A stretch of DNA of 61,353 bases, filler included, from Gemmatimonadota bacterium (lineage in GTDB: Bacteria > 4572-55 > J002): the NCBI GenBank assembly GCA_003697105.1. It is 3 parts of 3 records of this genome, joined end to end, with 100 filler letters (N's around TTAATTAATTAA, not from the genome) between each part and the next. Parts side by side here need not be neighbours in the genome. Positions count along the whole stretch, not along the records: positions 28,618 to 37,697 come from RFFQ01000182.1; 2 more parts are not named here. One strand, 5' to 3'. A model generated the notes under the pieces. The model did no database searches. It saw only the letters and a program-made list of their open reading frames with translations, and was not told where the DNA came from. The position numbers were made by a program, and so were the translations under genes. Shown piece after piece: positions 13,601 through 37,797 of the stretch. Positions within the stretch are counted from its first letter, which is position 1. Every line of letters starts with the position of its first letter.

Positions 13601-16536
13601 CGAAGACAATCCCCCTGAAAATTACCGAGCAACACGTACCTAACTTTTTTATCACCGGTTATCAGGTGCAGAAGGGCGTGATCGAAACAGACAACCGGCA
13701 GGTGTTTGTGCCACCTGCCAAGCACTTCATTAACGTGGATTTGACTGCAGATAAAACCACCTATAAACCGGGTGAAACCGGTACGTTTACGCTGAAAACC
13801 ACCGATTCCCAAGGTAAACCGATTGTCGCCGAAGTGGCGCTGAGTGTGTTCGATGCCTCTTTGCTCTACATCCAAAATGAAACCTCCCCGGACATCCGCC
13901 GCTACTACTACGGCAGTCTGCGCGGGGACGCCACCGGCACGCAAAATTCATTCGATTACCGCCTTGCGCCGGTCAGTGAAGATAAAACCACCTACAAGGA
14001 TTATGAGCGACACGGCTACCCCGATGGCTGGTACGGTTTGAGTGATGGACTACGGTATGAGCTACTGGGTGAGGAGATCGATCAACGCACCGAACACATG
14101 AGCATGGGCGCCGCCGGAGAGGGACGCCAAGTCATGGCAATGGACATGGCAGCACCCGCGCCAATGGCGGAAGAAGCCCCCATGATGAAGTCTGCTCCTA
14201 CCGAGGAAGCCGAATTTACCGATGCGGATGAAACCCGCCGCGACGCCAATGAGAAGAAAAAAGAAGGGGCGAATGTCGAGCCAGAAGTACGCACCAACTT
14301 TGCCGAAACCGCGCTCTGGCGTCCGTTTGTCGTCACGGATGAAAATGGGGAGGCAACAGTTGATTGTGACTTCCCGGATGCACTGACCACGTGGCGGGCA
14401 AGCGCCAAAGCGGTCTCCGGTAAAACGCACGTGGGCGAGGCGATGACGGAAGTCCGCACCAAAAAAGAGGTGCTAGTGCGCCTGCAAGCACCTCGCTTTT
14501 TTGTGGAACGGGACGAAGTAGTGATCTCGGCAAACGTCCACAATTACAGTGAAACGGTGCAGGAATTAACGGTGGAATTAGGGATTAGGGATCAGGGATC
14601 AGGAGTTAGCAAATTGCTACGCTTGATCTCGGCGGAAAATCCGGTACAAATCACGTTAGCACCGAATTCCGAAGAGCGGGTCGATTGGCGAGTGGCAGTG
14701 GTCGGCAATGGCGAGGTGACAATCCGCGTCTCTGCCGCCTCTCCGCAGGATGGCGATGCGATGGAATTGACGTTTCCGGTTTTTGAATACGGCATCGAAA
14801 AGATGGTAGCCCATCTGGGCGACCTGCGCACAACGGATCAGGCGGAATTTACCCTGACCGTGCCGGATGAGATCAAGCAAGGGTCGCAGAACTTGCAAAT
14901 CGTCCTCTCGCCTTCACTGGCGGCGATCACCATCGATGCCCTGCCCTATCTGGCGGATTACCCCTACGGCTGTTTCGAGCAAACGATCAACCGCTTTGTA
15001 CCGGCAGTGCTGGTGGCGAAAACACTGCAGAACTTGGGAATGAATCTGGAAGATTTGGAACATGCGCGGAAAAACATCATGGCAAAAGAGCTTGCCGCCG
15101 GGCGCTACCGGCATCGGGAAAGTCCGGTTTACGACAGCCAAGAATTGCAACAGATGATCGATACCGGTTTGAATCGCATTCCTAAATTCCAGAACCGTGA
15201 CGGCGGGTTCGGCTGGTGGACACAGGATTCGCAATCCGACCCTTACATGACGGCGTTAGGTGTAAATTCGCTGATAATCGCCCAATCGTGCGATCTGAAT
15301 GTTAACCAAAATATGCTGCGCCGGGCGGTGAATTATCTGCAAAATTATGTGAAAACACGGGATAATGTGCCGGAGAATCTGCAAACGTATATTTACTATG
15401 CCCTCTCCAATTATGATCCAAAAAAGATCGACATGGAGGCGCTGGACACACTTTTTGGTCGGCGGGATGAACTTTCCTACTATTCTTGGGCGCTGTTAGG
15501 GTTGACCTATGCCAACAAAGTATTGGAAGAACTAGGCACGTTTCGGCGGGGGCAATTGATGGTGGCATCATTGGATGAACCATTAGTGGAGCAAAATTTA
15601 GACAGTCCGGCGTTTGAAAAGATGGATATTTTGCGGCAAAATTTACTAGACCGGATGCGTACAGATGACCAAAATGGCACGGCATTCTGGCAACCTGAAG
15701 GCAGTTATTGGTGGTATTGGTGGAATAATCGGGTAGAAACTACCGCCACCACTCTGCAATTTTTGAATCGGGTGGATCCACACAATGAGAATCTGCCGCG
15801 AGTGGTCAAATGGTTAGTCAATAATCGACGCGGCAATCGCTGGTACTCCACCAAAGATACCGCGCTTGGCGTGCATGTACTGCTGGAATACGCACGGTCA
15901 CAGGGGGAATTAGACGCCGATTACGAATTGACCGTTAAGATGGACGGGGAACCCCTGAAAGTCATTCGCGTCACACCGGAAAATTTGCTGACCTTTGATA
16001 ATAAAATTTTTGTGGAAGCGCCTGAATTGAACCGCGGTGAGCATCAAATTGAAATCAGCAAAAATGGCACGGGCAACCTCTATTATTCTGCCTTTGTGGA
16101 GTACTTCACACAGGAAGAACAGATTGAGGGCACCGGTAATGAAATTTTCATCACCCGGACATATTTTAAGAAAGCAGAAGCGGGGGGTGAAAAGCAAACA
16201 TTAGCGGATGGGGACCGGCTAAACAGTGGTGATGAAATTGAAGTGGAATTGACCATCCATGCCAAAAATGACTACGATTATTTGGTGTTTGAAGACATGA
16301 AACCGGCCGGGTGCGAGTTCACCCAATTGAAATCGGCTGGGGGTTACATGGAACTGCGCGACGAAAAGGCGGTTTTTTTCCGGCATTCACTCCGGCAGGG
16401 AGAGACAACGATTCGATATAACTTGCGGGCAGAAATTCCGGGCGATTTCCATGCACTGCCCACCAAGGGACTTGCCATGTACGCCCCGGATGTGCGATCC
16501 ATCAGTGATAGTTTTACCCTGAAGATTGAAGATTAA
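10681..16536 (+). CDS. Bacterial alpha-2-macroglobulin with N-terminal TPRs
   Basis: TDRPVYRP (MG2), FRVEEYKRP, VRTNFAETALW, FPDALTTW, thioester motif YPYGCFEQ, QNRDGGFGWW, AMYAP. Confidence 0.92.
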   Translation: MIRIILFVLIAGGLSLFAMVSFSAPGKHPANAFNAGNQEFEKKNYVKALDYYQQALEHEKNSEKALEIQYQIGLCYVRLNRERDYRQKFEEFISDYLETTKGTIWEARAYYLKGLAFQNYYYYPDGEIHPFEQARLIYNDYLKSKKLRAQELLETDIRLAEALEAQIYNYSYRRMEHQRQEMDNPPAGDDPFYEEWERESLKETDAKYHKEWEIRKRIVYLFREMSRLSKKPADQFTVHYNLAHFLRRQARTEIYTQEAIKRFRDVTAEAPDTKLREDAQFSIAFFYLEQENWLTAETELEALIRKFPTSRWVSDARRALQQIRKKELRMDVQTAFLPDQTPTITVTTRNLKAVEFTLYPFDFAEFLQSAAGLKAEALNHFNELFGDIEQAVKYADKPLHKWTETVEDRDDHNPVATELTLDLNEIKKGEPVIGTYLLVGKRGQNSTAALIVVSDLTIIQRTADDKVVTFVADALSGAPVPNAEVTILKHQHQFQGVSDENGLFETHTALSSCAGYSCFIASYAVVGNRFAATPQQYGYSYREDRRQIQSYTITDRPVYRPEQMVYFKHIFRENRDGVYFPLNNTDVRVIIKDPRWSTVLDTTLQTNEFGSIAGSYTLPEEAPLGVYRFELSRKNQRIYAASAPQFRVEEYKRPEVKLNVSADESNLRVGETIKITLNAEYYFGGGVADADVNYTIRRQNYRPTFYSGNEYDWLYGRGFDDENRDRGWWWYRWWYYDRNETLMTSGSAKTDAEGNVEIEIKTDDLLTDEWEDAYLITIEANVTDASRRQIDARKEIILPVSEFYAYVESERNFLLPNEKAKFTIFTLTPNYAPKDADGTVRVLKLTPKDDPQENEDPYTEKEIYSEELSTKNGRGEFIWIPKDDGRFRIRFEARDKREALVTGQTELWVAGEKFSGRTYRFANLQVTTNKSTYAEGETAHLLITTAQNESHVFLTSGANRDLYGAQVIAIKGGAKTIPLKITEQHVPNFFITGYQVQKGVIETDNRQVFVPPAKHFINVDLTADKTTYKPGETGTFTLKTTDSQGKPIVAEVALSVFDASLLYIQNETSPDIRRYYYGSLRGDATGTQNSFDYRLAPVSEDKTTYKDYERHGYPDGWYGLSDGLRYELLGEEIDQRTEHMSMGAAGEGRQVMAMDMAAPAPMAEEAPMMKSAPTEEAEFTDADETRRDANEKKKEGANVEPEVRTNFAETALWRPFVVTDENGEATVDCDFPDALTTWRASAKAVSGKTHVGEAMTEVRTKKEVLVRLQAPRFFVERDEVVISANVHNYSETVQELTVELGIRDQGSGVSKLLRLISAENPVQITLAPNSEERVDWRVAVVGNGEVTIRVSAASPQDGDAMELTFPVFEYGIEKMVAHLGDLRTTDQAEFTLTVPDEIKQGSQNLQIVLSPSLAAITIDALPYLADYPYGCFEQTINRFVPAVLVAKTLQNLGMNLEDLEHARKNIMAKELAAGRYRHRESPVYDSQELQQMIDTGLNRIPKFQNRDGGFGWWTQDSQSDPYMTALGVNSLIIAQSCDLNVNQNMLRRAVNYLQNYVKTRDNVPENLQTYIYYALSNYDPKKIDMEALDTLFGRRDELSYYSWALLGLTYANKVLEELGTFRRGQLMVASLDEPLVEQNLDSPAFEKMDILRQNLLDRMRTDDQNGTAFWQPEGSYWWYWWNNRVETTATTLQFLNRVDPHNENLPRVVKWLVNNRRGNRWYSTKDTALGVHVLLEYARSQGELDADYELTVKMDGEPLKVIRVTPENLLTFDNKIFVEAPELNRGEHQIEISKNGTGNLYYSAFVEYFTQEEQIEGTGNEIFITRTYFKKAEAGGEKQTLADGDRLNSGDEIEVELTIHAKNDYDYLVFEDMKPAGCEFTQLKSAGGYMELRDEKAVFFRHSLRQGETTIRYNLRAEIPGDFHALPTKGLAMYAPDVRSISDSFTLKIED
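14576..14609 (-). repeat. In-frame heptamer repeat inside the alpha-2-macroglobulin gene
   Basis: attaggg attaggg atcaggg atcagga gttag, the reverse complement of the 1354-1415 repeat type; encodes LGIRDQGSGVS. Confidence 0.75.
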
Positions 16537-25765: not shown

Positions 25766-26767
25766 ATGCGACGATTCATTGGATTTTGGGTGATGCTGAT
25801 GGTCTGTTTTGGCATTCATCCGATTCACGCCCAAGCACCCACCTTTCGTGGGGATAAAGTGTATAAAACGGATGGACAAATTTTAGTTGGTAAGGTGTTG
25901 AAGATTACGGTTCAAGAAGTATTGATTCAAGTTGAGCACGAGCGGACATCTCTTACAATACCCAGCTCTGAAATTGATCGCGTTCGACTAAAAAATGGTA
26001 CGGAAATCCAGTTTCCAATCGATGAAGATTATGTGGATATTGAAGGGACGCCCTACCAACGCAAGAAAGTAAAATCGACTCATGTCGAAAACAGTGCCGG
26101 CCTGTTTGTCAGCGGATTTCGTTATGAACCGTCCTTGAAATCATTCAATGCGTTCATCGATTATACAAATAATGAATTCACCAACATCTTTCCGGCTCAA
26201 GTCACCGGCGTCACCATTGAAGACCCTCTTGAACTCAAACATTTAGAGGGTAATTACGGCATTCATGCGGGTTTCCGCTATTATACCGATCCCGGGTGGT
26301 CGATTGCCCTCTCCTACGGCTATATGTCCACAGATAGTAAAGATGAATTCAGTTATTGGATTCAAAATACATTATATGAATATAAATTCCGGTATATCCT
26401 CAACGCTACGATTGTTGGATTGACGTTTCGTAGTAATCTTATCAAATCTGGGTGGGTTTCTCCGATTTTAGGTGGTGGATTTGACATCTATTCGATTCGT
26501 CGTAAATTGGAATTGGCGACTCCCGATCCCGAAGATACCATCACCCAAGTCGCAAAACAAGAATTTTTATATTTTGAAGACGATGCGCGAGGGGTGGGCA
26601 TCACAGGTTTAGGGGGATTGGAGCTCAACATTACCCGTAATTGGGCCGTGAATGCCGAAGCAAAATATACTTTTTACGGAAAAGCCACGACCAATTATAG
26701 TAAAACGTATGATGTCGAGATGGACGGATGGGCGGCAAGTGCCACCGTATTATTCTACTTCAAATAA
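25766..26767 (+). CDS. Outer-membrane beta-barrel protein
   Basis: Signal peptide, amphipathic beta strands, aromatic C-terminus (LFYFK). Confidence 0.7.
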   Translation: MRRFIGFWVMLMVCFGIHPIHAQAPTFRGDKVYKTDGQILVGKVLKITVQEVLIQVEHERTSLTIPSSEIDRVRLKNGTEIQFPIDEDYVDIEGTPYQRKKVKSTHVENSAGLFVSGFRYEPSLKSFNAFIDYTNNEFTNIFPAQVTGVTIEDPLELKHLEGNYGIHAGFRYYTDPGWSIALSYGYMSTDSKDEFSYWIQNTLYEYKFRYILNATIVGLTFRSNLIKSGWVSPILGGGFDIYSIRRKLELATPDPEDTITQVAKQEFLYFEDDARGVGITGLGGLELNITRNWAVNAEAKYTFYGKATTNYSKTYDVEMDGWAASATVLFYFK

Positions 26768-26928
26768 CATATTTATAATCAACAAGTTAAATCGCTTTAT
26801 CACCTAAAATTTGAGCGATTAATCTGAAACAAAAACTTACAAAAAAACCTAAAAAAAATATCTATAACCATCTGGAAATAAAAGAGTTAACTTCAACAAA
26901 ATCTGAGAAAAAATCCCTGAAATTTTTC

Positions 26929-26957
26929 TTGACATTTGAAATAATCTCCTGTATTAT
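26929..26957 (+). promoter_or_regulatory. sigma70-type promoter of dnaA
   Basis: TTGACA, 17 bp, TATTAT in an AT-rich intergenic region. Confidence 0.7.
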
Positions 26958-27040
26958 CGACAAACGCTCTTTTTATAAGCGGGATACGAAGGATATTCGA
27001 TTATTTTGGTGCATGACTATGCGGGGATGAAGGGAAGTTT

Positions 27041-28435
27041 ATGAGTTCCACAGCGGCTCAACTTTGGGAAAAGGTATTAGAAGGAATCCGATCGGAAGTC
27101 GATGAACAAAGTTACGAAACGTGGCTTGCCAGTGCAAAAGGCGTGTCACTCTCAACAGACTTTCTATATATTGAGGTCGAGAGTGATTTTGCTGCGAATT
27201 ATATTTATCGTAACATGAAGGATCAACTCGAAGCGGTGTTAAAAAAAACGGTCAACAATAAATCCGTTGGGATTAAATGTATCGTTGCTGAAGGTCAAGC
27301 CCCTCGCCCTCAACACGCGGAATCACCCGCACCTTCCACACTCCGCCCACCGGATCATTCTCGGAAACGGGTTTCCGGAGCCACCCCGGTTCAAACCCTT
27401 GAAAGCACTTTAAATCCGAAATACACATTTAGTGAATTTGTTGTCGGGAAAAGTAACCAGTTCGCCCATGCCGCAGCAAAAGGTGTGGCTGAAAAACCTG
27501 CCCAAATTTATAACCCGCTTTTTATCTACGGTGGTGTCGGTTTAGGAAAAACACACTTGATGCAAGCAATTGGGCATAGCGTTAAAGAACAACAGCCCCA
27601 GAGCAAAGTCTATTATGTTCAAGCCGAAAATTTCATGAATGAAATGATCCAATCGATCCAGCATGGTAATATCATGGATTTTCGGAATAAACACCGGAAT
27701 TTGGATGTATTATTGATAGATGATATTCAATTTATTGCCGGAAAAGAAAGTACGCAGGAAGAGTTTTTCCACACCTTTAATTCACTTCATGGGGCACACA
27801 AGCAGATTATTGTCACAAGTGACCGCCCTCCTAAAGAAATACCCACCTTGGAAGCACGGCTGGTATCTCGTTTTGAATGGGGGTTAATTACCGATATTCA
27901 ACCCCCAGATTTTGAAACACGGGTGGCAATTCTCCGAAAAAAAGCCGAATCCCACTCCCTTGAAATCCCCAACAATGTGATGCACTTCATTGCACACAAT
28001 ATTGATTCCAATATTCGAGAGCTAGAAGGCTCGCTGATCCGTTTAATTGCCTATGCCCAAATTAAAGACCTGCCCATCACGATTGAAATGGCAGGAGAGG
28101 TTCTTAAAGATATGATGGGTGAGGGAAATCACACTATCACAATTGATATTATTCAGCGGGTTGTTGGTGATTATTTTAATGTTTCAATGGCGGATCTCAT
28201 ATCCTCCAAGCGGCATAGCCACCTTGCCCGCTCGCGTCAAATCGCGATGTACCTCTCCCGGGAGTACACCAACGCCTCTCTGATTGAAATTGGGAAAAAT
28301 TTCGGTGATCGGGATCACGCCACGGTTATTCACGCCCATAAAAAAATTAAGAAAGAACTCTCGAAAGAGACGGAAACAGCTAAAGATATTAAAGAACTCA
28401 CCACAATACTTCAGGAGTGGCTGAACCAAAAATAA
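27041..28435 (+). CDS. dnaA: Chromosomal replication initiator DnaA (complete, domains I-IV)
   Basis: Domain I (LWEKVL...YETWL), Walker A GGVGLGKT, Walker B LLIDD, SNIRELEG, domain IV RQIAMYL...RDHATV. Confidence 0.97.
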   Translation: MSSTAAQLWEKVLEGIRSEVDEQSYETWLASAKGVSLSTDFLYIEVESDFAANYIYRNMKDQLEAVLKKTVNNKSVGIKCIVAEGQAPRPQHAESPAPSTLRPPDHSRKRVSGATPVQTLESTLNPKYTFSEFVVGKSNQFAHAAAKGVAEKPAQIYNPLFIYGGVGLGKTHLMQAIGHSVKEQQPQSKVYYVQAENFMNEMIQSIQHGNIMDFRNKHRNLDVLLIDDIQFIAGKESTQEEFFHTFNSLHGAHKQIIVTSDRPPKEIPTLEARLVSRFEWGLITDIQPPDFETRVAILRKKAESHSLEIPNNVMHFIAHNIDSNIRELEGSLIRLIAYAQIKDLPITIEMAGEVLKDMMGEGNHTITIDIIQRVVGDYFNVSMADLISSKRHSHLARSRQIAMYLSREYTNASLIEIGKNFGDRDHATVIHAHKKIKKELSKETETAKDIKELTTILQEWLNQK

Positions 28436-28617: not shown

Positions 28618-29537
28618 GCATAATCAATCTGAAACATACGGACGTTAAGCCCCGCGCCATACGTCATATCCCCTTCTTGATTACCCAACCGGAGTGCTAC
28701 CCGTTGCCCCAGGCGATACTCTAACCCGAAATACAAATCCCCGCTAACGGTATCACTGCCGAACTGCGCGGCGCTATTTCGCCCTTCAAACAACGTATTG
28801 AGGTCTCCGCTGAGGGTTACTTCCCCCAGCGGTGCGCCGGTTGTGAAGGCAAATCCCAACCGTAAACTTGGAGTGATGGTCTCCGTGGTACTCTCTTCGG
28901 TATCCCACACCAACGGGCTGGAGGTTGCATCTTTGAGCACGACGCCGACCAGCAGTCGCGGTGAAAGGGCATAAATGGCACCGACATCTAACCCTAACCC
29001 CCACGCATGATTATCAACCGTTTTTTTGTAGATCATCTTGACCGAACCGCCCACTTTCAACTTTAAGCTAAGATGGCGTCCATAGGAAAAATAGAGGGCA
29101 TTTTGGGCATCACTGCTCATTTTAATGTTGTCCAAATTGAGGGTTTCACCGGGGTCGAGGACGCCATTGCCATTTAGGTCATTCAAGGCACCGGTCGTCA
29201 CCGGAATATCACCGATACTGAGCCGCACCAAACTGAGAGATAACGTACCGTTTTCACCAAAAGGTTGGGCATATGCGCCATAATCGTAATTGGCAATATC
29301 GCCAAATTGCTCCGCGTGCATTAATACCAATTCCCGTTCGCCCACCCAAGAAAGTCCGGCAGGATTCCAGTAGCTGGCAGTGGCATCATCTGCCAAACCC
29401 GTATAAGCACTACCCATACCCAATGCCCGGGCGCCAACACCTAAACTGAGAAACTCCCCAGCGTATTTTGTGGCGTAACTCTGGGAACCCCATCCCACCA
29501 AAATAATAAGCACCAGTAAGGCGGTTTTCCGTAACAT
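28618..29537 (-). CDS. PorV/PorQ-like outer-membrane beta-barrel, 3'-truncated by the contig end
   Basis: FLSLGVGARALGMG, ASYWNPAGL, GLDVG, ALRLG, GAGL...QIDY. Confidence 0.82.
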
Positions 29538-29891
29538 GATCTCCTCCGTAAAACGTAAAGCGTCAGTTTTTTAGGATGTATTAAACCCCCCTTAGGCAGA
29601 AATGATGCCACGATAGCACCCGTCCCGTAAAATCCGCCCAAACATCAGAAATAGACTAACCTGTGAACGGTTTGCACGAGAGATTATTCGCCCCGGAAGC
29701 GAAGAATATCCCCCTGAAACTGTGGCAATTAATCGACAATGTACCCGAACGAATGACCTGATGAACCGCGCCAACCGGTTGCCAAGACACTGGTTTACAT
29801 CCAAAAAAGCCTTGACGGAAAATGGTAAACATGCTAGAGTTTTACTCTATTTGAGCCTTATTGTTTCGGATTACATCTTTAGGATAACCAC

Positions 29892-30950
29892 ATGGCAACT
29901 ACATCTTTACACCCGCCGGATCCGATTGCGGTAGTCGCACTGGGTGGTAATGCGATTACCCGCAAGGGTGAAGAAGGCAACATCCAACAGCAATTTGCTA
30001 ATACCCGTCAAGCCTTACCGGCAATTGTAGAACTCATCCAACGAGGGTATCGGGTCGTGATAACTCACGGCAATGGTCCTCAGGTAGGCAATCTGTTCTT
30101 GATGGTCGAAGCCACGCACGATTTCATCCCCGAATTACCTTTGGGAGTGTGTGTCGCTGATACACAAGGGCAAATGGGCTATATGATCCAGCAAAGTTTA
30201 CAGAATTTTCTTCGAGCGGGCGGCATCTCAACCCCAGTCGTCACCGTCGTGACACAGGTCGTCGTTGACCGCCAAGACCCCTCCTTTGACCACCCAACTA
30301 AACCTATCGGTAAATTCTACTCCCCCGAGGAAGCCGCCCAAATTCAAGCCGAAAAAGGTTATCACATGGTCGAAGATAGTGGGCGAGGTTGGCGAATCGT
30401 CGTGCCCTCACCTAAACCGGTGAAGGTGGTCGAAAAAGAGGTCATCTCCATGCTGTTAGAACACAATGTAATTGTGATCGCGGTGGGAGGTGGGGGTATT
30501 CCCGTGATCGAATTAGCAGAAAATCCAACAGACCCGCCTGACATTAAACACGATAAACAAAAACGTGCTCAGATTTTAGGCTTGGATTTAGCACCGGAAA
30601 TTTATGATGGGGTCGATGTTGTGATCGATAAAGATTTAGCCTCAGCCGTACTGGCAAATAACATTGGGGCGGATATGTTGATCATTTTAACCGGCGTCGA
30701 TCAAGTTTGTTTGAATTTTGGCAAACCAGAGGCAACACAGCTTGATCGATTAACACCCGCACAAGCCCAACGTTATTTAGCCGAGGGTCATTTCCCGCCG
30801 GGGAGTATGGGACCCAAAATTGAAGCCGCGGTCTCTTTTATTGAAAATGGCGGTAAAGAAGTCCTGATTACCTCGCTGGAACGCATCCGCGAGGCGTTGG
30901 ACGGGAAAACCGGTACCCGGTTGGGTGCTGAAACGGAACCCCTAAAGTGA
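29892..30950 (+). CDS. arcC: Carbamate kinase
   Basis: VALGGNA, THGNGPQVG, PTKPIG, VPSPKP, GGGGIPV, VIDKD, GSMGPK. Confidence 0.95.
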   Translation: MATTSLHPPDPIAVVALGGNAITRKGEEGNIQQQFANTRQALPAIVELIQRGYRVVITHGNGPQVGNLFLMVEATHDFIPELPLGVCVADTQGQMGYMIQQSLQNFLRAGGISTPVVTVVTQVVVDRQDPSFDHPTKPIGKFYSPEEAAQIQAEKGYHMVEDSGRGWRIVVPSPKPVKVVEKEVISMLLEHNVIVIAVGGGGIPVIELAENPTDPPDIKHDKQKRAQILGLDLAPEIYDGVDVVIDKDLASAVLANNIGADMLIILTGVDQVCLNFGKPEATQLDRLTPAQAQRYLAEGHFPPGSMGPKIEAAVSFIENGGKEVLITSLERIREALDGKTGTRLGAETEPLK

Positions 30951-30957
30951 GAAAATC

Positions 30958-32460
30958 ATGTTTAAAAAAGTACTCATCGCCAATCGGGGCGAAATTGCGG
31001 TTCGTGTGATGCGCGCATGCCGTGAAATGGGCATGAAATCCGTCGCGATTTATTCCGATGCCGACCGCATTGCGCGGCATGTCCGATTCGCAGATGAAGC
31101 CTACCGGGTCGGTGAACCCCCTTCCATTGAAAGTTATCTGCGGATGGAACGTATCATTGAGGTGGCGAGACAAGCCAACGCGGACGCCATCCATCCCGGC
31201 TACGGTTTTCTAGCCGAAAATGCCACCTTCGCGGAACAGTGCGAACAAAACGGTATCACCTTCGTCGGTCCCCCCTCCGGCGCCATTAGCGCCATGGGCG
31301 ATAAAATCACGGCACGAGATTTAGCCGCCAAAGCCAACGTACCGGTGGTACCGGGTGCAAATTTCTCTCTGGAAGATGAACCAATGGCGCGGAACATCGC
31401 CCACGAAATCGGATACCCCATCCTATTAAAGAGTGCCGGCGGTGGCGGCGGTAAAGGGATACGGATTGTCCGCCAACCGGAGGATTTGGAACGCTCTCTC
31501 CGCTCGGCACGCCATGAAGCGTATGCCGCGTTTGGCGATGATCGCGTGTATATGGAAAAATACATCGAAAATCCCCGCCATATCGAAATCCAAATCTTAG
31601 CAGATAAACACGGCAATGTGATTCATTTAGGTGAACGAGAATGTTCCATCCAACGGCGACACCAAAAATTGATTGAAGAAGCCCCCTCACCGGTCGTCTC
31701 GCCGGAAATGCGCCAACAGATGGGGGAATGTGCCATCCGCATTGCGAAAGCGGCGAATTATGTCAATGCCGGAACCGTCGAATTTATTGTTGATCCGGCG
31801 TTGAATTTTTATTTTTTAGAGATGAACACCCGGTTGCAAGTGGAACATCCGGTCACCGAACGTATTACCGGCTTGGACATTGTTAAAGAGCAATTTCAGA
31901 TTGCCGCCGGTCAGCCCCTCTCGATTTCGCAGAACGATGTCCAATTTCAGGGATGGGCAATTGAGTGCCGCATCAATGCGGAAGACCCGCTGAACCAGTT
32001 CCTACCATCCATCGGAAAGATTGAACAGCTAAACGAACCCGGCGGGAACGGCATCCGGGTGGATAGCGGTATCATCGAGGGGTGTACCGTCAGTGAATAT
32101 TACGACCCCATGCTGGCAAAATTGATTGTCTGGGCGCGATCCCGCACCGAGGCGATTGATCGAATGCGTTATGCCCTCCGGGAATTTCGGTTGGAAGGCA
32201 TTGCCACCAATGTCCCCTTTCACCAATTTGTAATGGAAGATGACGATTTCCGCGCCGGTCAAATTGATACCCACTATCTGGAGCGCAAATCCTTTGAAAT
32301 GACCATCGACCCCGCATTGGCGGAAGCCGCCGCGATAGCAGTCGCGTTGGAGGTTCACCAAGCACGAATGCAAGCCTCCCCAACCGCACCCTCCGCGCCA
32401 TTATCTGGGGCAGCCAATATGTGGAAAATGTCCGGTCGGCTCTCTCGTCTGCGGTACTGA
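30958..32460 (+). CDS. accC: Biotin carboxylase subunit of an acyl-CoA/pyruvate carboxylase
   Basis: KKVLIANRGEIA, HPGYGFLAEN, GGGGKG, ECSIQRRHQK, EMNTRLQVEHP, YYDPMLAK. Confidence 0.93.
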   Translation: MFKKVLIANRGEIAVRVMRACREMGMKSVAIYSDADRIARHVRFADEAYRVGEPPSIESYLRMERIIEVARQANADAIHPGYGFLAENATFAEQCEQNGITFVGPPSGAISAMGDKITARDLAAKANVPVVPGANFSLEDEPMARNIAHEIGYPILLKSAGGGGGKGIRIVRQPEDLERSLRSARHEAYAAFGDDRVYMEKYIENPRHIEIQILADKHGNVIHLGERECSIQRRHQKLIEEAPSPVVSPEMRQQMGECAIRIAKAANYVNAGTVEFIVDPALNFYFLEMNTRLQVEHPVTERITGLDIVKEQFQIAAGQPLSISQNDVQFQGWAIECRINAEDPLNQFLPSIGKIEQLNEPGGNGIRVDSGIIEGCTVSEYYDPMLAKLIVWARSRTEAIDRMRYALREFRLEGIATNVPFHQFVMEDDDFRAGQIDTHYLERKSFEMTIDPALAEAAAIAVALEVHQARMQASPTAPSAPLSGAANMWKMSGRLSRLRY

Positions 32461-32479
32461 GAAGGGGAGGAGCAAACCG

Positions 32480-33283
32480 ATGCAACTGGAAGGTCCGGTT
32501 CGACGATTCCAACTGGCACACGTTTACCGGGAATTGGCATACGAACGCCAAACCGGCATGTTGATCGTCAGTGATCGCAACCGCCAAGCCGGCATCTATT
32601 TTAGTAATGGACAACTTGTGTTCGCCAAACAATCCAGCCAGCAAGACCGGTTGGGAGACCGGTTGGTTGCCAAAGGATATATCACCGAGGATCAACTGCG
32701 GGAGGCAATCACCATCCAACGCCGTTCCGATGAAACCCGCCGGTTAGGGCGGATTTTGATCGATGAACAGTTCGTGGGAGCCGCCATCATAGAGCAGTTG
32801 ATGCAGGATCAAATTAAAGAGGTCGTGCTTGAAGTCTTGGATTGGAATTCCGGCACATACCGGTTTATGACCGGCATGTCCCCCCCAGAAGAAGATGTCC
32901 TTCTTCAGATAGCTATTGAAAATTTGATCTTGGAAGGTCTGCGGCGCCGGGTCCAATGGGAAGATGTTCGGACGGATTTTGTCCCCGCCGAAACCGTTTT
33001 CGGATTGAAACCTCGGCCCAATAGGGCGGATATTACCTTGCACCTCACTGCTGAAGAATGGAACACCCTGACGCAGGTCAATGGTATCCGGACGCTGGAC
33101 GAACTCCGAAAAACATCGACCTTAGATGCCGATGAGACCGGGCGAATCCTGTATATTTTGTACCAAACCGGACTTATCCATCCCGTCAACGGAACGCTTG
33201 TAGAAGATAAACTGCACCTCAGCGAGAAAGTAGCACACCTGAACCAGCTCTTGGAGGCATTTTTGACTACTGCAAAGGCGTAA
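32480..33283 (+). CDS. DUF4388-domain protein with MshEN-like (RLG) repeats
   Basis: MQLEG...RQTGML...IYFSNGQLVFA N-terminus; RLGDRLVAKGYITEDQLREAITIQ and RLGRILI; WNSGTYRF; ENLILEGLRR. Confidence 0.8.
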   Translation: MQLEGPVRRFQLAHVYRELAYERQTGMLIVSDRNRQAGIYFSNGQLVFAKQSSQQDRLGDRLVAKGYITEDQLREAITIQRRSDETRRLGRILIDEQFVGAAIIEQLMQDQIKEVVLEVLDWNSGTYRFMTGMSPPEEDVLLQIAIENLILEGLRRRVQWEDVRTDFVPAETVFGLKPRPNRADITLHLTAEEWNTLTQVNGIRTLDELRKTSTLDADETGRILYILYQTGLIHPVNGTLVEDKLHLSEKVAHLNQLLEAFLTTAKA

Positions 33284-33286
33284 TTC

Positions 33287-34012
33287 ATGCCGGAAACTGC
33301 GTACCAGCATCTTATCGCGACATTGGATGCAAGCTTAGAGCGCATCCTGCAAGCCTTTTTTGCGGAAGACCCCCGCCGGGTATCATTTGATGTGGAAACG
33401 TGGATGTCACAAATGAACTCGGTCGCGCAAAGTTATGTGGCACCCGTCCAAAAGCTGATGCGCTTACAGCACCTTCTCGACGATGCCGGGGAGCAATTCC
33501 AATCGGGTGAATTGCCACTGCCGGTCTTACAACGCCTAATGCAATTGCTCACCGATCTGCGAACCTCCCGCTTTTCCGGTGAATTTTACCATGCCATTCA
33601 AACCGGTGAAGTGCAAGCGGAACAGATAGACCACTTATTAAACGGTATTTTCCGATTTATCATCCTCCACACCCCGGAAACCGAACTGCTGATCCCCGGG
33701 GAAAAAGGACAATGGCAACAGGTGGTACTCCACAAAGGGGAAATCCACCCAGAAGACCACGAAAAAGAATTTTTAAGCTACTTATTAACCTACCAAATTG
33801 ACGCCTTGTTGCATCGCTACCACGAACAAGATCGATTGTATGACATCGCAAACGAACATCTACACGTCCTCGAAGAACGTTATTCCCGCGAGGATGAGCT
33901 TTTCGTGGGGATGATGATTTACTATTTGCAGCTACGCCACCAACCGGTTGACGATCTCATCCGGCGCTTCAAGGCGATACGGCAAGCACAACCGGATTTT
34001 ATTGACTTTTGA
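33287..34012 (+). CDS. Hypothetical all-helical protein
   Basis: 241-aa ORF 3 bp after the DUF4388 gene and abutting the next gene; no motif recognised. Confidence 0.7.
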   Translation: MPETAYQHLIATLDASLERILQAFFAEDPRRVSFDVETWMSQMNSVAQSYVAPVQKLMRLQHLLDDAGEQFQSGELPLPVLQRLMQLLTDLRTSRFSGEFYHAIQTGEVQAEQIDHLLNGIFRFIILHTPETELLIPGEKGQWQQVVLHKGEIHPEDHEKEFLSYLLTYQIDALLHRYHEQDRLYDIANEHLHVLEERYSREDELFVGMMIYYLQLRHQPVDDLIRRFKAIRQAQPDFIDF

Positions 34013-34032
34013 CGGGAGCCATCCACAACATC

Positions 34033-36114
34033 ATGAGTTTCCTAGACCAAAAATTGATTCCACATTATGTGTTCGATACCTATGTGGTGGGGCACAATAA
34101 TCGATTAGCATTTGCTGCCGCTAAGGGTGTAGCAGAGAACCCGGCTTATACGTACAACCCCTTATTCATTTACAGCAGTGTAGGGTTAGGCAAAACGCAC
34201 CTATTGAACGCCATTGGCAACGCAATCGTTCAGAGTAACCCGCAAATGAAAGTGGTATATAGCTCGCTAGAAGTGGTGATGGAGAGCCTCACCGGGCACA
34301 TGAGCCGGGGTACTCTAAATGAATTTCGATTCTCATTTGAAGAAATTGATGTCTTGCTCCTCGATGATGTCCAGTTTTTAATTGGGCGTGAAGAAAAGCA
34401 AGAAGAATTTATCCGTATTTTTGATATGCTGTTGATGAATTTAAAACAACTGGTCTTTACCTCGGATCGTCCCCCAACGGATATGACCACCCTAGAAGAA
34501 CGGTTGCGTTCTCGCTTTCAGGGCGGATTGATCGTTGATATCCAACATCCCGATTTAGAAACACGAATCGCCATCCTCCAACGAAAAATTAAAGAAACCG
34601 GACGTACAGTACCCCCCGAAGTCGTCCATAAAATTGCCGAGAATGTCCCGACCAATGTGCGGGAATTAGAAGGCGCTTTGAACAAAGTATTGGCACATGC
34701 CCTGCTGACCGACCGCGAGATTTCGCTGGAAGTCGCCCGTGAAGCATTGGGTGAAAAACCCGCCCCAGCGCCGGAAGTCAAAACGCTGGAAGAATTCCAA
34801 AAAGAACAAGAAGCCCTTTCCAACGAATTTTCGGACTTTTTGAGCGGCGTTTCCGAAAAAGTGGAAGGTATCGCCATCGAAATCAGCCAACACCAACGCG
34901 AAAAAGATGAACTCCGCGAAAAAATTAAAATGTGGGAGCATCGTGGATTTGAGGTCGATAGCATCCGCCAAGCACTCCGCGGCACCATAGAAGATGCCAA
35001 ACGTGCCTATCAGGAATTTGAACAAAACGTGCACCGGCTTATGGAATTACAAGACGAACTTAGCGCACTGGAGGTGCCCAAAGAGGAACTATTTGAGGTT
35101 CGCCGAATTCAAGCCCGCTTATTTGATCCAGCCGCCGTGGCGTGGTGTGAGCAAGCCATCGCGACCCTACGGGAAAAGTTGGAAACCGAACAGTTTGATT
35201 TTGACCTCCCCCTAGATGATTATCATTTTGAAGATTATATCGTGGGCGAAAGCAACAAAATGGTCTATCGGGCGGCACAATTGATCGCGGAAGCGCCGGG
35301 TGAACGCTATAACCCGCTGTTTATTCACGGAGGCGTCGGCGTGGGGAAAACACATCTGCTCAATGCCATCGGAAACCGTATCCTCCAAAAGTACCCTCAG
35401 CGGAAAGTGGCGTACCTCAGTGCCGAAAAATTCACCAATGAACTGATTCAGGCAATTAGTGATAATCAAGTAGAGAAATTTCGAGCGAAATACCGGTCAG
35501 TGGATGTACTTATGATCGATGACATTCAATTTTTAGCCGGGCGGGAACGCACGCAGGAGGAATTTTTCCACTCCTTCAATGCCCTGTACACCGTCCATAA
35601 GGCGATCATCCTGACCAGTGATCGCTCCCCCAAAGAACTTACCACACTGGAAGACCGCCTCCGATCCCGCTTTGAAGGCGGATTAGTTGCGGAAATCAAA
35701 GCCCCGACTAAAGAAGTCCGTACCCAGTTGATTGAACGCATTTTAACCCGCGAAAACATTACGATGGAGCCGGCGCTGATCAACCATATCGCCGATACCA
35801 TCCAGACCAATATCCGCGAGTTGATCGGCGCCGTAAACCGGATTGTTGCCAACTGCGTCCTCAATGATCTACCCCCGACCCAGGAGATCGTTGATGCGGT
35901 ACTGGTCGAGGTTGCCGGGACAAGCAAACCCGCCGTCACCGCTGCAACCCCCGCAGGACAAGCGCCGATTTCCACATGGGAACAGACACTGTTGGCACAG
36001 ATTCCGAAAATCGAACAGCACTGGCGAACCCTAGATGTGTTACTGCATCATGACTACCTAACAGATGAATATCGTGTGGAAAAAGTGCTCCAACTGGCTG
36101 ATGATAATAGCTAA
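34033..36114 (+). CDS. Tandem DnaA-type AAA+ ATPase (two domain-III modules, no domain I or IV)
   Basis: Module 1: YNPLFIYSSVGLGKT, LLLDD, RLRSRF, NVRELEG. Module 2: YNPLFIHGGVGVGKT, LMIDD, RLRSRF, NIRELIG. Helical linker between them. Alternative TTG start at 34009. Confidence 0.88.
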   Translation: MSFLDQKLIPHYVFDTYVVGHNNRLAFAAAKGVAENPAYTYNPLFIYSSVGLGKTHLLNAIGNAIVQSNPQMKVVYSSLEVVMESLTGHMSRGTLNEFRFSFEEIDVLLLDDVQFLIGREEKQEEFIRIFDMLLMNLKQLVFTSDRPPTDMTTLEERLRSRFQGGLIVDIQHPDLETRIAILQRKIKETGRTVPPEVVHKIAENVPTNVRELEGALNKVLAHALLTDREISLEVAREALGEKPAPAPEVKTLEEFQKEQEALSNEFSDFLSGVSEKVEGIAIEISQHQREKDELREKIKMWEHRGFEVDSIRQALRGTIEDAKRAYQEFEQNVHRLMELQDELSALEVPKEELFEVRRIQARLFDPAAVAWCEQAIATLREKLETEQFDFDLPLDDYHFEDYIVGESNKMVYRAAQLIAEAPGERYNPLFIHGGVGVGKTHLLNAIGNRILQKYPQRKVAYLSAEKFTNELIQAISDNQVEKFRAKYRSVDVLMIDDIQFLAGRERTQEEFFHSFNALYTVHKAIILTSDRSPKELTTLEDRLRSRFEGGLVAEIKAPTKEVRTQLIERILTRENITMEPALINHIADTIQTNIRELIGAVNRIVANCVLNDLPPTQEIVDAVLVEVAGTSKPAVTAATPAGQAPISTWEQTLLAQIPKIEQHWRTLDVLLHHDYLTDEYRVEKVLQLADDNS

Positions 36115-36619
36115 CCTTGGCATTTTGGTAGGGATAGGGGGATGCCAGCCTCAGGCGGACGTGCGGCAGACGACATCCAAAACCGGGAAAATAGAGCCGG
36201 ATATTCAGACCTGCTTCCCGATCTTACCTGCGACGGTGCGCACAGTGCCCACTCGCATCGATTCGCTCACCCACCCCTGGGTCTTCCAACGGCTGGGAAC
36301 GGTAGCACCGGAGATTCACCCCCTAGATCAGGCTCGCGCGACCTATTCCTTGGAGGGGGATTCCGTGGAAGTAACCCTTTTTGAATTTGATAGCCTGAAA
36401 ACGGCACGTCACTGGATTTCCACGTTAAATGATGCCGGTTGCCAACCGGATTCCACATGGGGCAACGGTGGTTTTTATGATACATTTACCATTGCTTTCC
36501 GTGACGGTGTCTATGGCGTACATTTACAACGGTTTTCCCGCTCCGACACTGGCCGGATAATTATGCACCAATTGGCGGCAAAACTCGACGAACTTTTGAC
36601 CCGAAAGGATACCCTGTGA
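36101..36619 (+). CDS. Putative lipoprotein
   Basis: Hydrophobic N-terminus ending in a lipobox-like IGGC; overlaps both neighbours. Confidence 0.6.
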   Translation: MIIANLGILVGIGGCQPQADVRQTTSKTGKIEPDIQTCFPILPATVRTVPTRIDSLTHPWVFQRLGTVAPEIHPLDQARATYSLEGDSVEVTLFEFDSLKTARHWISTLNDAGCQPDSTWGNGGFYDTFTIAFRDGVYGVHLQRFSRSDTGRIIMHQLAAKLDELLTRKDTL

Positions 36620-37590
36620 AATATGTTTGGCTATATGGACTCATCCTACTAATACACCTCGCTTCTGCCAAAGGTAGCCCAGCCGCACAAGCTCTGGTGA
36701 ACAATATGGGATTAAGTGGCGGACTGGCAGAATGGTCACCGGATGGGCGGCAACTCGTTTTTGTGTCCACCGAAGGGTCCCGGCGCGGTATGGCAACCAA
36801 TCTCTGGATTATCAACGCCAACGGTAGTGGCAAAAAAATGATTACCGATAATAGTTCTTGGGATAGTTATCCTTCGTGGTCGCCGGATGGAACACGCATT
36901 ATCTATTCCTCACACCCAGATGGTCGCCCGAAAGAGCGGCATCTTTGGGTGATAAACCGCAACGGAAGTAACAAACAGCGCCTATCCACCCCTGTGAGCA
37001 ATCCAACCGCCCCGCAAATTTCACCTTCAGGACGCGAAGTCCTCTTTGTCTCAGGCGATAACCGTATCTGGAAAATGAATCTGGATGGCACAAATGCCTG
37101 CCAACTGACTCACCAAAAATCAACCCATCCCAGTTGGTCACCCAATGGACGGCATATCCTATTTGCGCAATACAGTCCCAAAACCCGTTACGACATCTGG
37201 GTGATGGATGCCGACGGCGAAAACCCACGACCCATTTCCACAGACATGCACAATGAATCCCACCCGCGCCTTTCACCCGACGGGTCAATGATTCTTTATG
37301 AAGTGTGGGATTTGCAAACCCGCTCCCGGCGCATCTGGGTCATGAATGCGGACGGAACCAATAAACACCCCTTGAACACAGGTGGTCAAGAAGATGGAAT
37401 GCCGCGGTGGTCACCGGACGGTCACATGATAGTTTTCAATTCCTGGGACCAACAAGAGCACAACCGGTTACAAATCCTTCCGGCGCCGCGTCCACCGTCA
37501 CAACCGCGATCGCTGCCCCGCCCCGTCCGGGTAATCCCCCCACGCCAACAGTGGACCACGGATAAAACCCCCGTGAAGCCCGCTACCCCC
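36616..37590 (+). CDS. Secreted TolB-like beta-propeller (PD40 repeats); 3' end unresolved
   Basis: Six W/ISPxG repeats with IWVMNADG-type segments; runs into poly-C at the contig end. Confidence 0.85.
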
Positions 37591-37697
37591 CCACCCCCCC
37601 CCCCCCCCCCCCACCCCCCCCCCCGCCCCCCCCCCCCCCCCCACCCCCCCCCCCCCCCCCCCACCCCCCCCCCCCCCCCCCCCCACCCCCCCCCCCC
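37585..37697. other. Poly-C low-complexity contig end (probable sequencing artefact)
   Basis: More than 100 nt of almost pure C directly before the spacer. Confidence 0.8.
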
Positions 37698-37797
37698 NNN
37701 NNNNNNNNNNNNNNNNNNNNNNNNNNNNNNNNNNNNNNNNNTTAATTAATTAANNNNNNNNNNNNNNNNNNNNNNNNNNNNNNNNNNNNNNNNNNNN
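37698..37797. other. Artificial contig-joining spacer
   Basis: N-run with a TTAATTAATTAA linker. Confidence 0.98.

Follow-up and report, generated by a model that had tools for sequence, protein, structure and literature searches.

To our knowledge, domain III of DnaA is regarded as an engine dedicated to the opening of bacterial replication origins, and Hda is its only well-known paralog. Hda consists of a single module of ~230 amino acids with an N-terminal clamp-binding motif. As in AAA+ initiators generally, neighboring DnaA protomers complete each other's ATP site by means of an arginine finger. We analyzed a stretch of 61,353 nucleotides (nt), hereafter the window, from an assembly filed as a Gemmatimonadota bacterium (GCA_003697105.1). 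In it, a gene on the plus strand (34033..36114, stop codon at 36112-36114) encodes a 693-amino acid ATPase with two DnaA domain III modules in one chain, a conserved helical domain between them, and no counterpart of DnaA domains I and IV, which have been lost. The gene was called from its open reading frame (ORF), its translation and the two stretches of the product that match the Pfam family Bac_DnaA. It is a new, divergent member of a large existing family that has so far gone uncharacterized. The window is made of 3 parts joined through fillers of 100 N's. Positions 28,618-37,697 come from RFFQ01000182.1, and parts that adjoin here are possibly not neighbors in the genome.

The tandem protein resembles DnaA in that each of its modules is a full domain III, with the core and lid, the Walker A and B motifs, the TSDR motif, the box VII arginines and the sensor II arginine. 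Module 1, the AAA+ core plus lid, begins at residue 8 and ends at residue 245 (34054..34767), as delimited by Pfam and by a structure model in which the predicted local distance difference test score (pLDDT) is mostly >90. It is followed by a low-confidence flexible segment (residues 246-261, 34768..34815; pLDDT <50 at 245-260), which is variable and gapped in the family alignment. Next comes the helical middle domain (residues 262-391, 34816..35205), one copy of a repeat of ~95 amino acids, recognized by its conserved columns and by a fold model of its own. Module 2 (residues 392-632, 35206..35928) again has an AAA+ core, with a diverged lid; it is intact here and partly degenerate elsewhere in the family. 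The protein ends in a 61-amino acid tail (residues 633-693, 35929..36111; pLDDT 33-62) that belongs to no Pfam family and carries a conserved Trp-containing motif near its end (family alignment columns 701-735). All these features are on the plus strand. Both modules keep Walker A (GLGKT and GVGKT), Walker B (DD), TSDR, the RLRSRF arginine finger motif and N.RE, in agreement with an earlier note on this DNA that had described these motifs as intact from the sequence alone. Aligned over 238 amino acids, the two modules share 45% identity. The same note had pointed to their likeness to the canonical dnaA gene of the window (27041..28435, plus strand), which lies outside the system described here and served as a comparator; identities to its product are 46% and 48%.

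Profile searches gave the same domain layout. Bac_DnaA (PF00308) matched the 693-amino acid protein in two stretches (E value 2.3e-126, 418.5 bits). Neither DnaA_N (PF11638) nor Bac_DnaA_C (PF08299) matched the whole protein at E<=0.01, and the last 69 amino acids drew no match in Pfam with the threshold relaxed to E<=10. These hit numbers of two, zero and zero are the ones that the earlier note had predicted from its claim of two complete domain III modules without domains I and IV, and no C-terminal helix-turn-helix equivalent to domain IV was found. The canonical DnaA of the window, with 464 amino acids, has domains I, III and IV and carries DnaA_N, Bac_DnaA and Bac_DnaA_C (95.2 bits for the last). 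On the NCBIfam DnaA model TIGR00362 it scores 571.8 bits over profile positions 1-435. The tandem protein matches this model twice, each time only at positions 105-343 of 437, and its total of 634 bits (cut-off 343.9) is the sum of the two stretches.

Like Hda and HdaA, the tandem protein is a domain III paralog without domains I and IV that has retained the arginine finger. Unlike them, it has two modules and a helical domain, and it is nearer to the DnaA model than to the Hda model (634 versus 183 bits). On the Hda model TIGR03420 its score of 183.2 bits, reached only as the sum of two stretches, falls under the cut-off of 194.8, and the HdaA models give 43-60 bits against cut-offs of 297-300. 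The earlier note's statement that the protein is not Hda is thus in accord with the profile scores. Unlike DnaA, it has two modules per chain and lacks domain I and the domain IV helix-turn-helix; its modules form clades of their own, the Trp of the DnaA motif RFEWGL is replaced by Gly, and its relatives occur in a signaling context rather than in a dnaA-dnaN one. Judged by sequence, then, it is neither DnaA nor Hda.

An AlphaFold2 model built on 21 homologs had a mean pLDDT of 83.9, with values >90 over the greater part of each module. The best Protein Data Bank (PDB) match of the model was domain III of Bacillus subtilis DnaA, 8bv3_A, with a template modeling (TM) score of 0.96 on the target, a root mean square deviation of 1.4 A and 51% identity, and module 2 is a very close match to this domain. 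The model and the two Bac_DnaA stretches together bear out the two complete modules. Type II tandem AAA+ proteins such as p97/VCP, NSF and Rix7 similarly have two AAA+ modules, one strict and one partly degenerate, and they appear as distant Foldseek matches of the tandem protein (TM ~0.27). They differ in being hexameric rings of the classic clade, whereas the tandem protein is of the initiator clade, has a helical domain of 130 amino acids between its modules and gives no indication of a ring.

A two-module protein of this kind might also come about when two dnaA-like fragments are misjoined in assembly or when a duplicate decays, and a run of N ~1.6 kb 3' of the gene could be taken as a hint of this. 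The frame is open, and every motif is present. It reaches 36114 on the plus strand from either a TTG at 34009 or an ATG at 34033; we took the ATG as the start because the N termini of homologs match there and because GGGAG lies 14 nt 5' of it, just past the TGA of the preceding ORF. Two Logan contigs run across the fusion and show 0 differences from the window: a 9064-nt contig of run X1 covers 32400-36700, and a 3629-nt contig of run X2 covers 32400-35602, extending through module 1 and the middle domain into module 2. The misassembled fusion that the earlier note had thought of is therefore not seen in the contigs of either run. Both runs are hot-spring metagenomes of one study and possibly the source of the window itself, so that recurrence in other assemblies is the stronger argument: the same two-module layout is found in 119 of the 120 best homologs and in hundreds of independent assemblies. 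An assembly error as the origin of the fusion is ruled out, and we attach a negligible probability to an artifact or a decaying duplicate.

The 120 best database relatives are 635-716 amino acids long (median 649) and align with 35-70% identity over 86-98% of the query. The closest of them, P0002, is 70% identical to the window protein. Relatives with names are called "DnaA/Hda family protein" in Gemmatimonadota metagenome-assembled genomes (MAGs) or "chromosomal replication initiator protein (DnaA)" in Joint Genome Institute (JGI) records. In the ESM Atlas the family forms several clusters of 60-133 members each, most often from Gemmatimonadota. The window protein has both features by which we define this tandem DnaA-III family, namely two modules and the helical middle domain between them. 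The earlier note had implied a singular architecture, and this did not hold up.

The distribution of the family was assessed with a profile of the middle domain alone, built so as to exclude true DnaA, which was applied to sampled species genomes. Of 201 species genomes sampled from the phylum to which locus L001, a Gemmatimonadota MAG, belongs, 134 had a match, nearly always in one copy; when four genomes flagged as unpublished are left aside, the count is 130 of 197. No match was found among 81 sampled genomes from the phylum of a Krumholzibacteriota locus, nor among 81 from the phylum of a Sumerlaeota locus. A scan of genome contigs with the family alignment, which relied on motifs common to ordinary DnaA, recovered tandem proteins at 3 of 80 loci (L001, L002 and L009), and all 25 loci found by scanning metagenome contigs with the window protein were ordinary single-module DnaA. 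The window has a G+C content of ~49%, and the best named matches of its tyrosyl-tRNA synthetase, at ~60-62% identity, come from Armatimonadota, Poribacteria, Ignavibacteriales and Latescibacteria. The lineage of the window is distinct from Gemmatimonadota. Some Gemmatimonadota loci carry altered versions of the gene. At L123 (7965-9943) the two modules are in separate frames, from a frameshift or a sequencing error; at L117 (8233-9951) module 1 is truncated (profile positions 3-167); and at L125, L129, L131 and L132 module 2 is without its lid, the profile match stopping at position 166-176 of ~240.

To place the modules relative to DnaA, a maximum-likelihood tree was built from 85 domain III sequences: 45 of true DnaA, 20 of module 1 and 20 of module 2. 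The DnaA sequences came from many phyla and included that of the window and four from Gemmatimonadota. Each of the three groups occupied one side of a branch, with support of 97/95 (DnaA), 98/94 (module 1) and 100/98 (module 2), and a quick tree gave the same three groups. The split of the 45 DnaA sequences from the 40 module sequences (97/95) places the tandem modules outside bona fide DnaA. The earlier note had proposed separate trees of each module against DnaA and Hda; against DnaA three distinct groups were obtained, and Hda sequences were absent from the tree. As the tree is unrooted and holds no Hda, DnaC or Orc outgroup, it does not give the order of events. Since module 1, module 2 and DnaA each stand apart, the duplication is old and was not copied from a local dnaA. 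In both sub-trees, which match in shape, the window modules cluster with those of P0002 and P0003, and the duplication is therefore older than the split between the window lineage and Gemmatimonadota. Their positions in the trees make each of the two window modules an ortholog of the corresponding module in other family members.

Conservation of functional residues was counted over 119 two-module proteins. Module 1 is close to invariant: the Walker A Lys, both Asp residues of Walker B, and the Asp and the Arg of TSDR are each present in 119/119 proteins, the box VII arginine finger in 118/119 and the sensor II Arg in 117/119. The corresponding numbers for module 2 are 113/119 for the Walker A Lys, 119/119 and 114/119 for the first and second Walker B Asp, 71/119 and 73/119 for the TSDR Asp and Arg, and 101/119 for the sensor II Arg. 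Module 2 is thus partly degenerate in some members, yet its arginine finger is present in 119/119. There were 81 columns that are at least 90% conserved in DnaA, of which module 1 retains 52 and module 2 retains 35. The losses in the two modules are complementary. Among the 15 columns of the lid and box VIII, module 1 retains 12 and module 2 retains 3; the TQEEFFHTFN stretch, which follows Walker B, has 12 such columns, 7 of them retained in module 2 and 2 in module 1. This stretch is one that we take to contribute to single-strand contacts in 3r8f, a structure of DnaA with single-stranded DNA (ssDNA). At the Trp of RFEWGL, a residue conserved to 93% in DnaA, both modules have Gly in 90% of the sequences, from which we infer a changed protomer interface.

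The earlier note had described the region between the modules as a helical linker of roughly 150 amino acids. It is indeed helical; it is not a mere tether, being instead a conserved, folded domain. Residues 262-391 are conserved across the family, and the window segment aligns with those of Gemmatimonadota. Folded alone, on 21 sequences, the domain was modeled as five helices with a pLDDT of 95.3 and a predicted TM score (pTM) of 0.79. It belongs to no Pfam family, and its fold had no Foldseek match in the PDB at E<=0.001, the best E value being 2.3. The best VIA Z score was 6.8, for the rod-forming helical repeats of Embp (6gv5), EzrA (4uxv) and EbhA (2dgj), which is within the noise of generic helical bundles, so that no named fold was assigned.

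When the middle-domain profile was run against 1.84 billion representatives, 451 proteins matched at E<=0.001. Among the 150 of these that were listed, 34 carry 4-23 tandem copies of a helical repeat of ~95 amino acids, and all 34 were scanned against Pfam. Seven of them (P0251, P0252, P0255, P0267, P0320, P0352 and P0364) have 6-8 copies of the repeat and a single Bac_DnaA module, after which most have zinc ribbons. Two start with DUF835, one of these being named from Thermoplasmata archaea, and one has a KaiC-like ATPase domain. The longest, of 3143 amino acids, is from a Candidatus Wallbacteria MAG. The proteins with a repeat array and a DnaA module have the same helical unit as the tandem protein and likewise a domain III without domain IV. 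They differ from it in having 6-8 repeats, a single module and, often, C-terminal zinc ribbons. RFEGGL replaces RFEWGL in both of those examined (P0252 and P0320), and no sister relationship of the array-protein module to module 1 or to module 2 was established. As the repeat occurs in other proteins, the helical unit is an independent module that has been joined to DnaA-type ATPases more than once. It is found in long proteins of bacteria and archaea, is without a Pfam model and merits definition as a family. A PATAN-like N terminus in P0250 was considered and dropped as unsupported (hhalign probability 0.5, E value 0.12).

The genes around the tandem ATPase were examined at 22 Gemmatimonadota loci (20 regions on long contigs together with L001 and L002) and scored with home-made profiles. 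At all 22, a gene for an MglA-like small GTPase lies directly 5' to the ATPase gene on the same strand, and a PATAN (DUF4388) gene lies directly 3' to it. A second PATAN gene is found 1.3-3 kb upstream at 20 loci, and the remaining two loci end before it. In the 12 loci with clean ORF calls, the end of the GTPase gene overlaps the start of the ATPase gene by 4 nt in nine cases and by 1 nt in one, and a gap of 2-3 nt separates them in two. The P-loop, TVPGQ and NKxD of the neighboring GTPase are invariant; the Thr in the place of the usual Asp of the TVPGQ motif is given in PMC3000849 as the hallmark of MglA. By Pfam and NCBIfam assignments, the genes 5' to the GTPase encode, in order, CheA, CheC/CheX, a TPR protein of ~900 amino acids, a PATAN-TPR protein, a TPR-Roadblock protein and one or two Roadblock/MglB-like proteins. 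Those 3' to the ATPase encode a PATAN-TPR protein, CheR or CheD, CheB, two CheW proteins, a TPR protein and a peptidase. A chemosensory (Che) operon surrounds the tandem ATPase at all four loci checked for the outer Che genes (L117, L119, L122 and L128). The ATPase gene is single-copy and syntenic across the phylum.

The association also extends to whole genomes. Comparison by hand of the two genome lists showed an MglA-like match (E<=1e-30) in 134/134 genomes with the middle domain versus 23/67 without it. Most of the genomes with the middle domain have two MglA-like genes: the copy beside the tandem ATPase scores ~1e-90 to 1e-126 and the other, located elsewhere, ~1e-70 to 1e-86. Several of these second copies have an in-frame TGA or TAA inside the match. 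Of eight Gemmatimonadota PATAN proteins searched for the MshE-related motif for binding of cyclic di-GMP (c-di-GMP), four scored above the cut-off, two scored below it and two had no match.

With its MglA-type GTPase and its MglB/Roadblock-like, PATAN, TPR and Che proteins, the Gemmatimonadota cluster is like the MglA/MglB-PATAN-Frz-type systems of Myxococcus and Thermus and the PATAN regulators of cyanobacteria. Unlike it, the systems described are without a DnaA-like ATPase, and of all these components the window itself shows only a PATAN gene. MglA genes near PATAN genes, and MglA in Gemmatimonadetes, are on record in the text of PMC4316618. The word "DnaA" occurs 0 times in that text, and its supplementary gene-neighborhood table may list such neighbors. 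Outside the subscription journals, we found no paper on a tandem DnaA domain III protein or on DnaA-like genes in MglA/PATAN/Che clusters, none that pairs "PATAN domain" with "DnaA", and no functional study of the architecture, the existence of which would have spoken against the proposal of the earlier note.

In the window, the tandem ATPase gene is the last of five consecutive genes on the plus strand, which encode a carbamate kinase-like protein, a biotin carboxylase, a PATAN protein of 267 amino acids, the product of a 241-amino acid ORF and the ATPase; the gaps between them are 8, 20, 4 and 20 nt. The PATAN gene (32480..33283; DUF4388 E value 6.2e-26) is thus two genes 5' to that of the ATPase. 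Its product carries the MshE-related c-di-GMP-binding motif at residues 57-111 (NF053729, 53.4 bits, cut-off 38) and is 27-36% identical to the PATAN proteins of the Gemmatimonadota clusters. The motif has a fixed place inside DUF4388/PATAN (~residues 57-112) in the window protein and in those of L114, L117 and L119, which suggests that PATAN proteins of the subfamily with this inserted motif may act as c-di-GMP receptors. Between the PATAN and ATPase genes, the orphan ORF (33287..34012, plus strand, its stop 20 nt 5' of the ATG of the ATPase) fills the slot that the MglA-like GTPase has in Gemmatimonadota; a comparison with the GTPase indicated that the two are unrelated (hhalign probability 0.06). 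The ATPases of the window and of Gemmatimonadota are ~40% identical and their lineages are very distant; the neighbor that they have in common is the PATAN/c-di-GMP protein.

To the 3' side of the tandem ATPase are genes for a probable lipoprotein and for a PD40 beta-propeller protein, both of which look unrelated. The latter gene (36616-37749) ends with an extended proline-rich tail, which leads into N's taken as a scaffold gap. No transposase, integrase or defense gene is nearby. These neighbors bear on the idea that the protein is an ATPase of a mobile element or an anti-phage system, an IstB/DnaC-type helper that merely resembles DnaA. A helper of this type would account for faint similarities to IstB_IS21 (66 bits in two stretches) and to the AAA+ models of PADLOC (at most 28.3 bits). 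They reflect a generic AAA+ likeness, however, and are far under the Bac_DnaA score, and a single-copy gene with conserved synteny across a phylum is hardly what this idea would predict; we consider it very improbable.

Taken together, these observations suggest that the tandem protein is a signaling ATPase derived from DnaA, and not a regulator of the DnaA filament or a part of the origin machinery. Function being deduced here from sequence and gene context, we put the chances that this is correct at about even. On this reading, the protein would be the ATP-driven component of a signaling module built from PATAN proteins with a c-di-GMP-binding motif, which in Gemmatimonadota would also include an MglA/MglB-type small GTPase pair and a chemosensory pathway. 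Module 1 would form the catalytic ATP site and be obligatory. Module 2 would supply its invariant arginine finger head to tail, in the manner of DnaA protomers, either within one chain or between chains. With ATP the protein might toggle between two states, one closed or oligomeric and the other open, so that it would serve as a switch or as an assembly platform, and the helical domain and the tail could provide docking surfaces for PATAN and TPR partners. Repurposing as a signaling ATPase was one of two options raised in the earlier note, and it is the one that the gene context favors.

Several observations weigh against a role in signaling. Gene neighborhood is an association and not a mechanism. 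The strong identity to DnaA and the retained arginine finger could allow docking on DnaA or binding to ssDNA. The pTM of the full-protein model is 0.42, which leaves the relative placement of the modules uncertain and with it an arginine finger acting within the chain. In the window, the PATAN neighbor is the one link to signaling. A search of the 61 kb found no gene for an MglA-like GTPase, and none of the Che genes (CheA, CheR/CheD, CheB, CheW) was present among ORFs of at least 150 amino acids. The ORF in the GTPase slot has no match in Pfam or NCBIfam, finds only itself among 5.8 billion clusters and has no usable match in the Atlas. Moreover, the tandem ATPase gene is 5.6 kb from dnaA in window coordinates, a spacing that looks coincidental because the Gemmatimonadota homologs are unlinked to dnaA and sit between MglA-like and PATAN genes.

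The other option of the earlier note was that the protein regulates the DnaA filament: without DNA binding of its own, it would dock through its AAA+ modules and cap the filament, co-polymerize with it or, like Hda, stimulate hydrolysis of DnaA-bound ATP. The proximity to dnaA in the window would agree with this, as would the identity of both modules to the window DnaA, the closeness of module 2 to B. subtilis domain III and the near-invariant arginine fingers. The role of Hda also seems to be vacant, no Hda having scored over the cut-off in the two Gemmatimonadota genomes tested. Against it, the ATPase gene was never beside dnaA in the four Gemmatimonadota genomes checked. In all four genomes with a hit, the canonical gene is elsewhere: on another contig in G082, G186 and G196, and 2.3 Mb away on the same contig in G108; G001, a fragmented MAG, had no domain IV match. 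The ATPase gene is instead always between MglA-like and PATAN genes, within a Che operon where this was examined. Inspection by eye of the N termini in the family alignment revealed no conserved motif like that for clamp binding, and the Trp to Gly change in RFEWGL implies an altered protomer interface. As the principal explanation, regulation of the filament is thus unsupported, and we regard it as unlikely.

Two readings combine signaling with the chromosome, and we consider both of them somewhat less probable still. The protein may be a coupling device that passes input from PATAN/c-di-GMP, MglA and Che proteins to DnaA, ssDNA or the origin, and so ties polarity or motility to replication or segregation. 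The joining of a signaling context to strongly DnaA-like modules would be explained in this way, as would the retention by module 2 of most of the DnaA-conserved columns of TQEEFFHTFN. Such a device would require two sets of interactions, whereas the protein has no detectable DNA-binding domain and its gene is unlinked to genes for replication or segregation. It is similarly doubtful that the tandem protein is an output or scaffold of polarity and chemosensory signaling, working as an ATP-driven oligomeric switch in the manner of DnaA that is read by PATAN/c-di-GMP proteins and MglA-type GTPases, and that it still touches the chromosome by way of DnaA, ssDNA or the origin. If this were true, there would be a direct molecular line from the motility or polarity state of the cell to the initiation of replication, and the long proteins that combine the helical repeat with a DnaA module would belong to a broader class, so far undescribed, of "DnaA-module plus helical-rod" machines.

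Some other features of the window were noted. The canonical dnaA lies within its stretch of lowest G+C content (26001-28000, 0.415), which may be the origin region. Sites with at most one mismatch to the DnaA-box consensus numbered 20 in the window, against 14.7 +/- 3.5 expected, and 6 of 100 shuffles reached 20, so that there is no enrichment. Promoter and terminator scans of the window gave results indistinguishable from those with shuffled sequence. At 10681-16536 there is a gene for a bacterial alpha-2-macroglobulin-like protein of 1951 amino acids with MG2, A2M, bait-region, TED and bMG10 domains.

The existence of the family has consequences for how genomes are read. Given the score of 634 bits on TIGR00362 and the DnaA names in JGI records, a genome that carries a family member can seem to contain a second dnaA gene, and the tandem proteins can mislead origin calling that relies on dnaA. 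Databases hold hundreds of sequences of the family under generic or wrong names. For the biology of these bacteria, the finding means that a family found across a phylum has duplicated the DnaA engine, dropped origin recognition and joined a cluster of small-GTPase, PATAN and chemotaxis genes. If the role in signaling suggested here is correct, the AAA+ module of the bacterial initiator would have been recruited outside replication.

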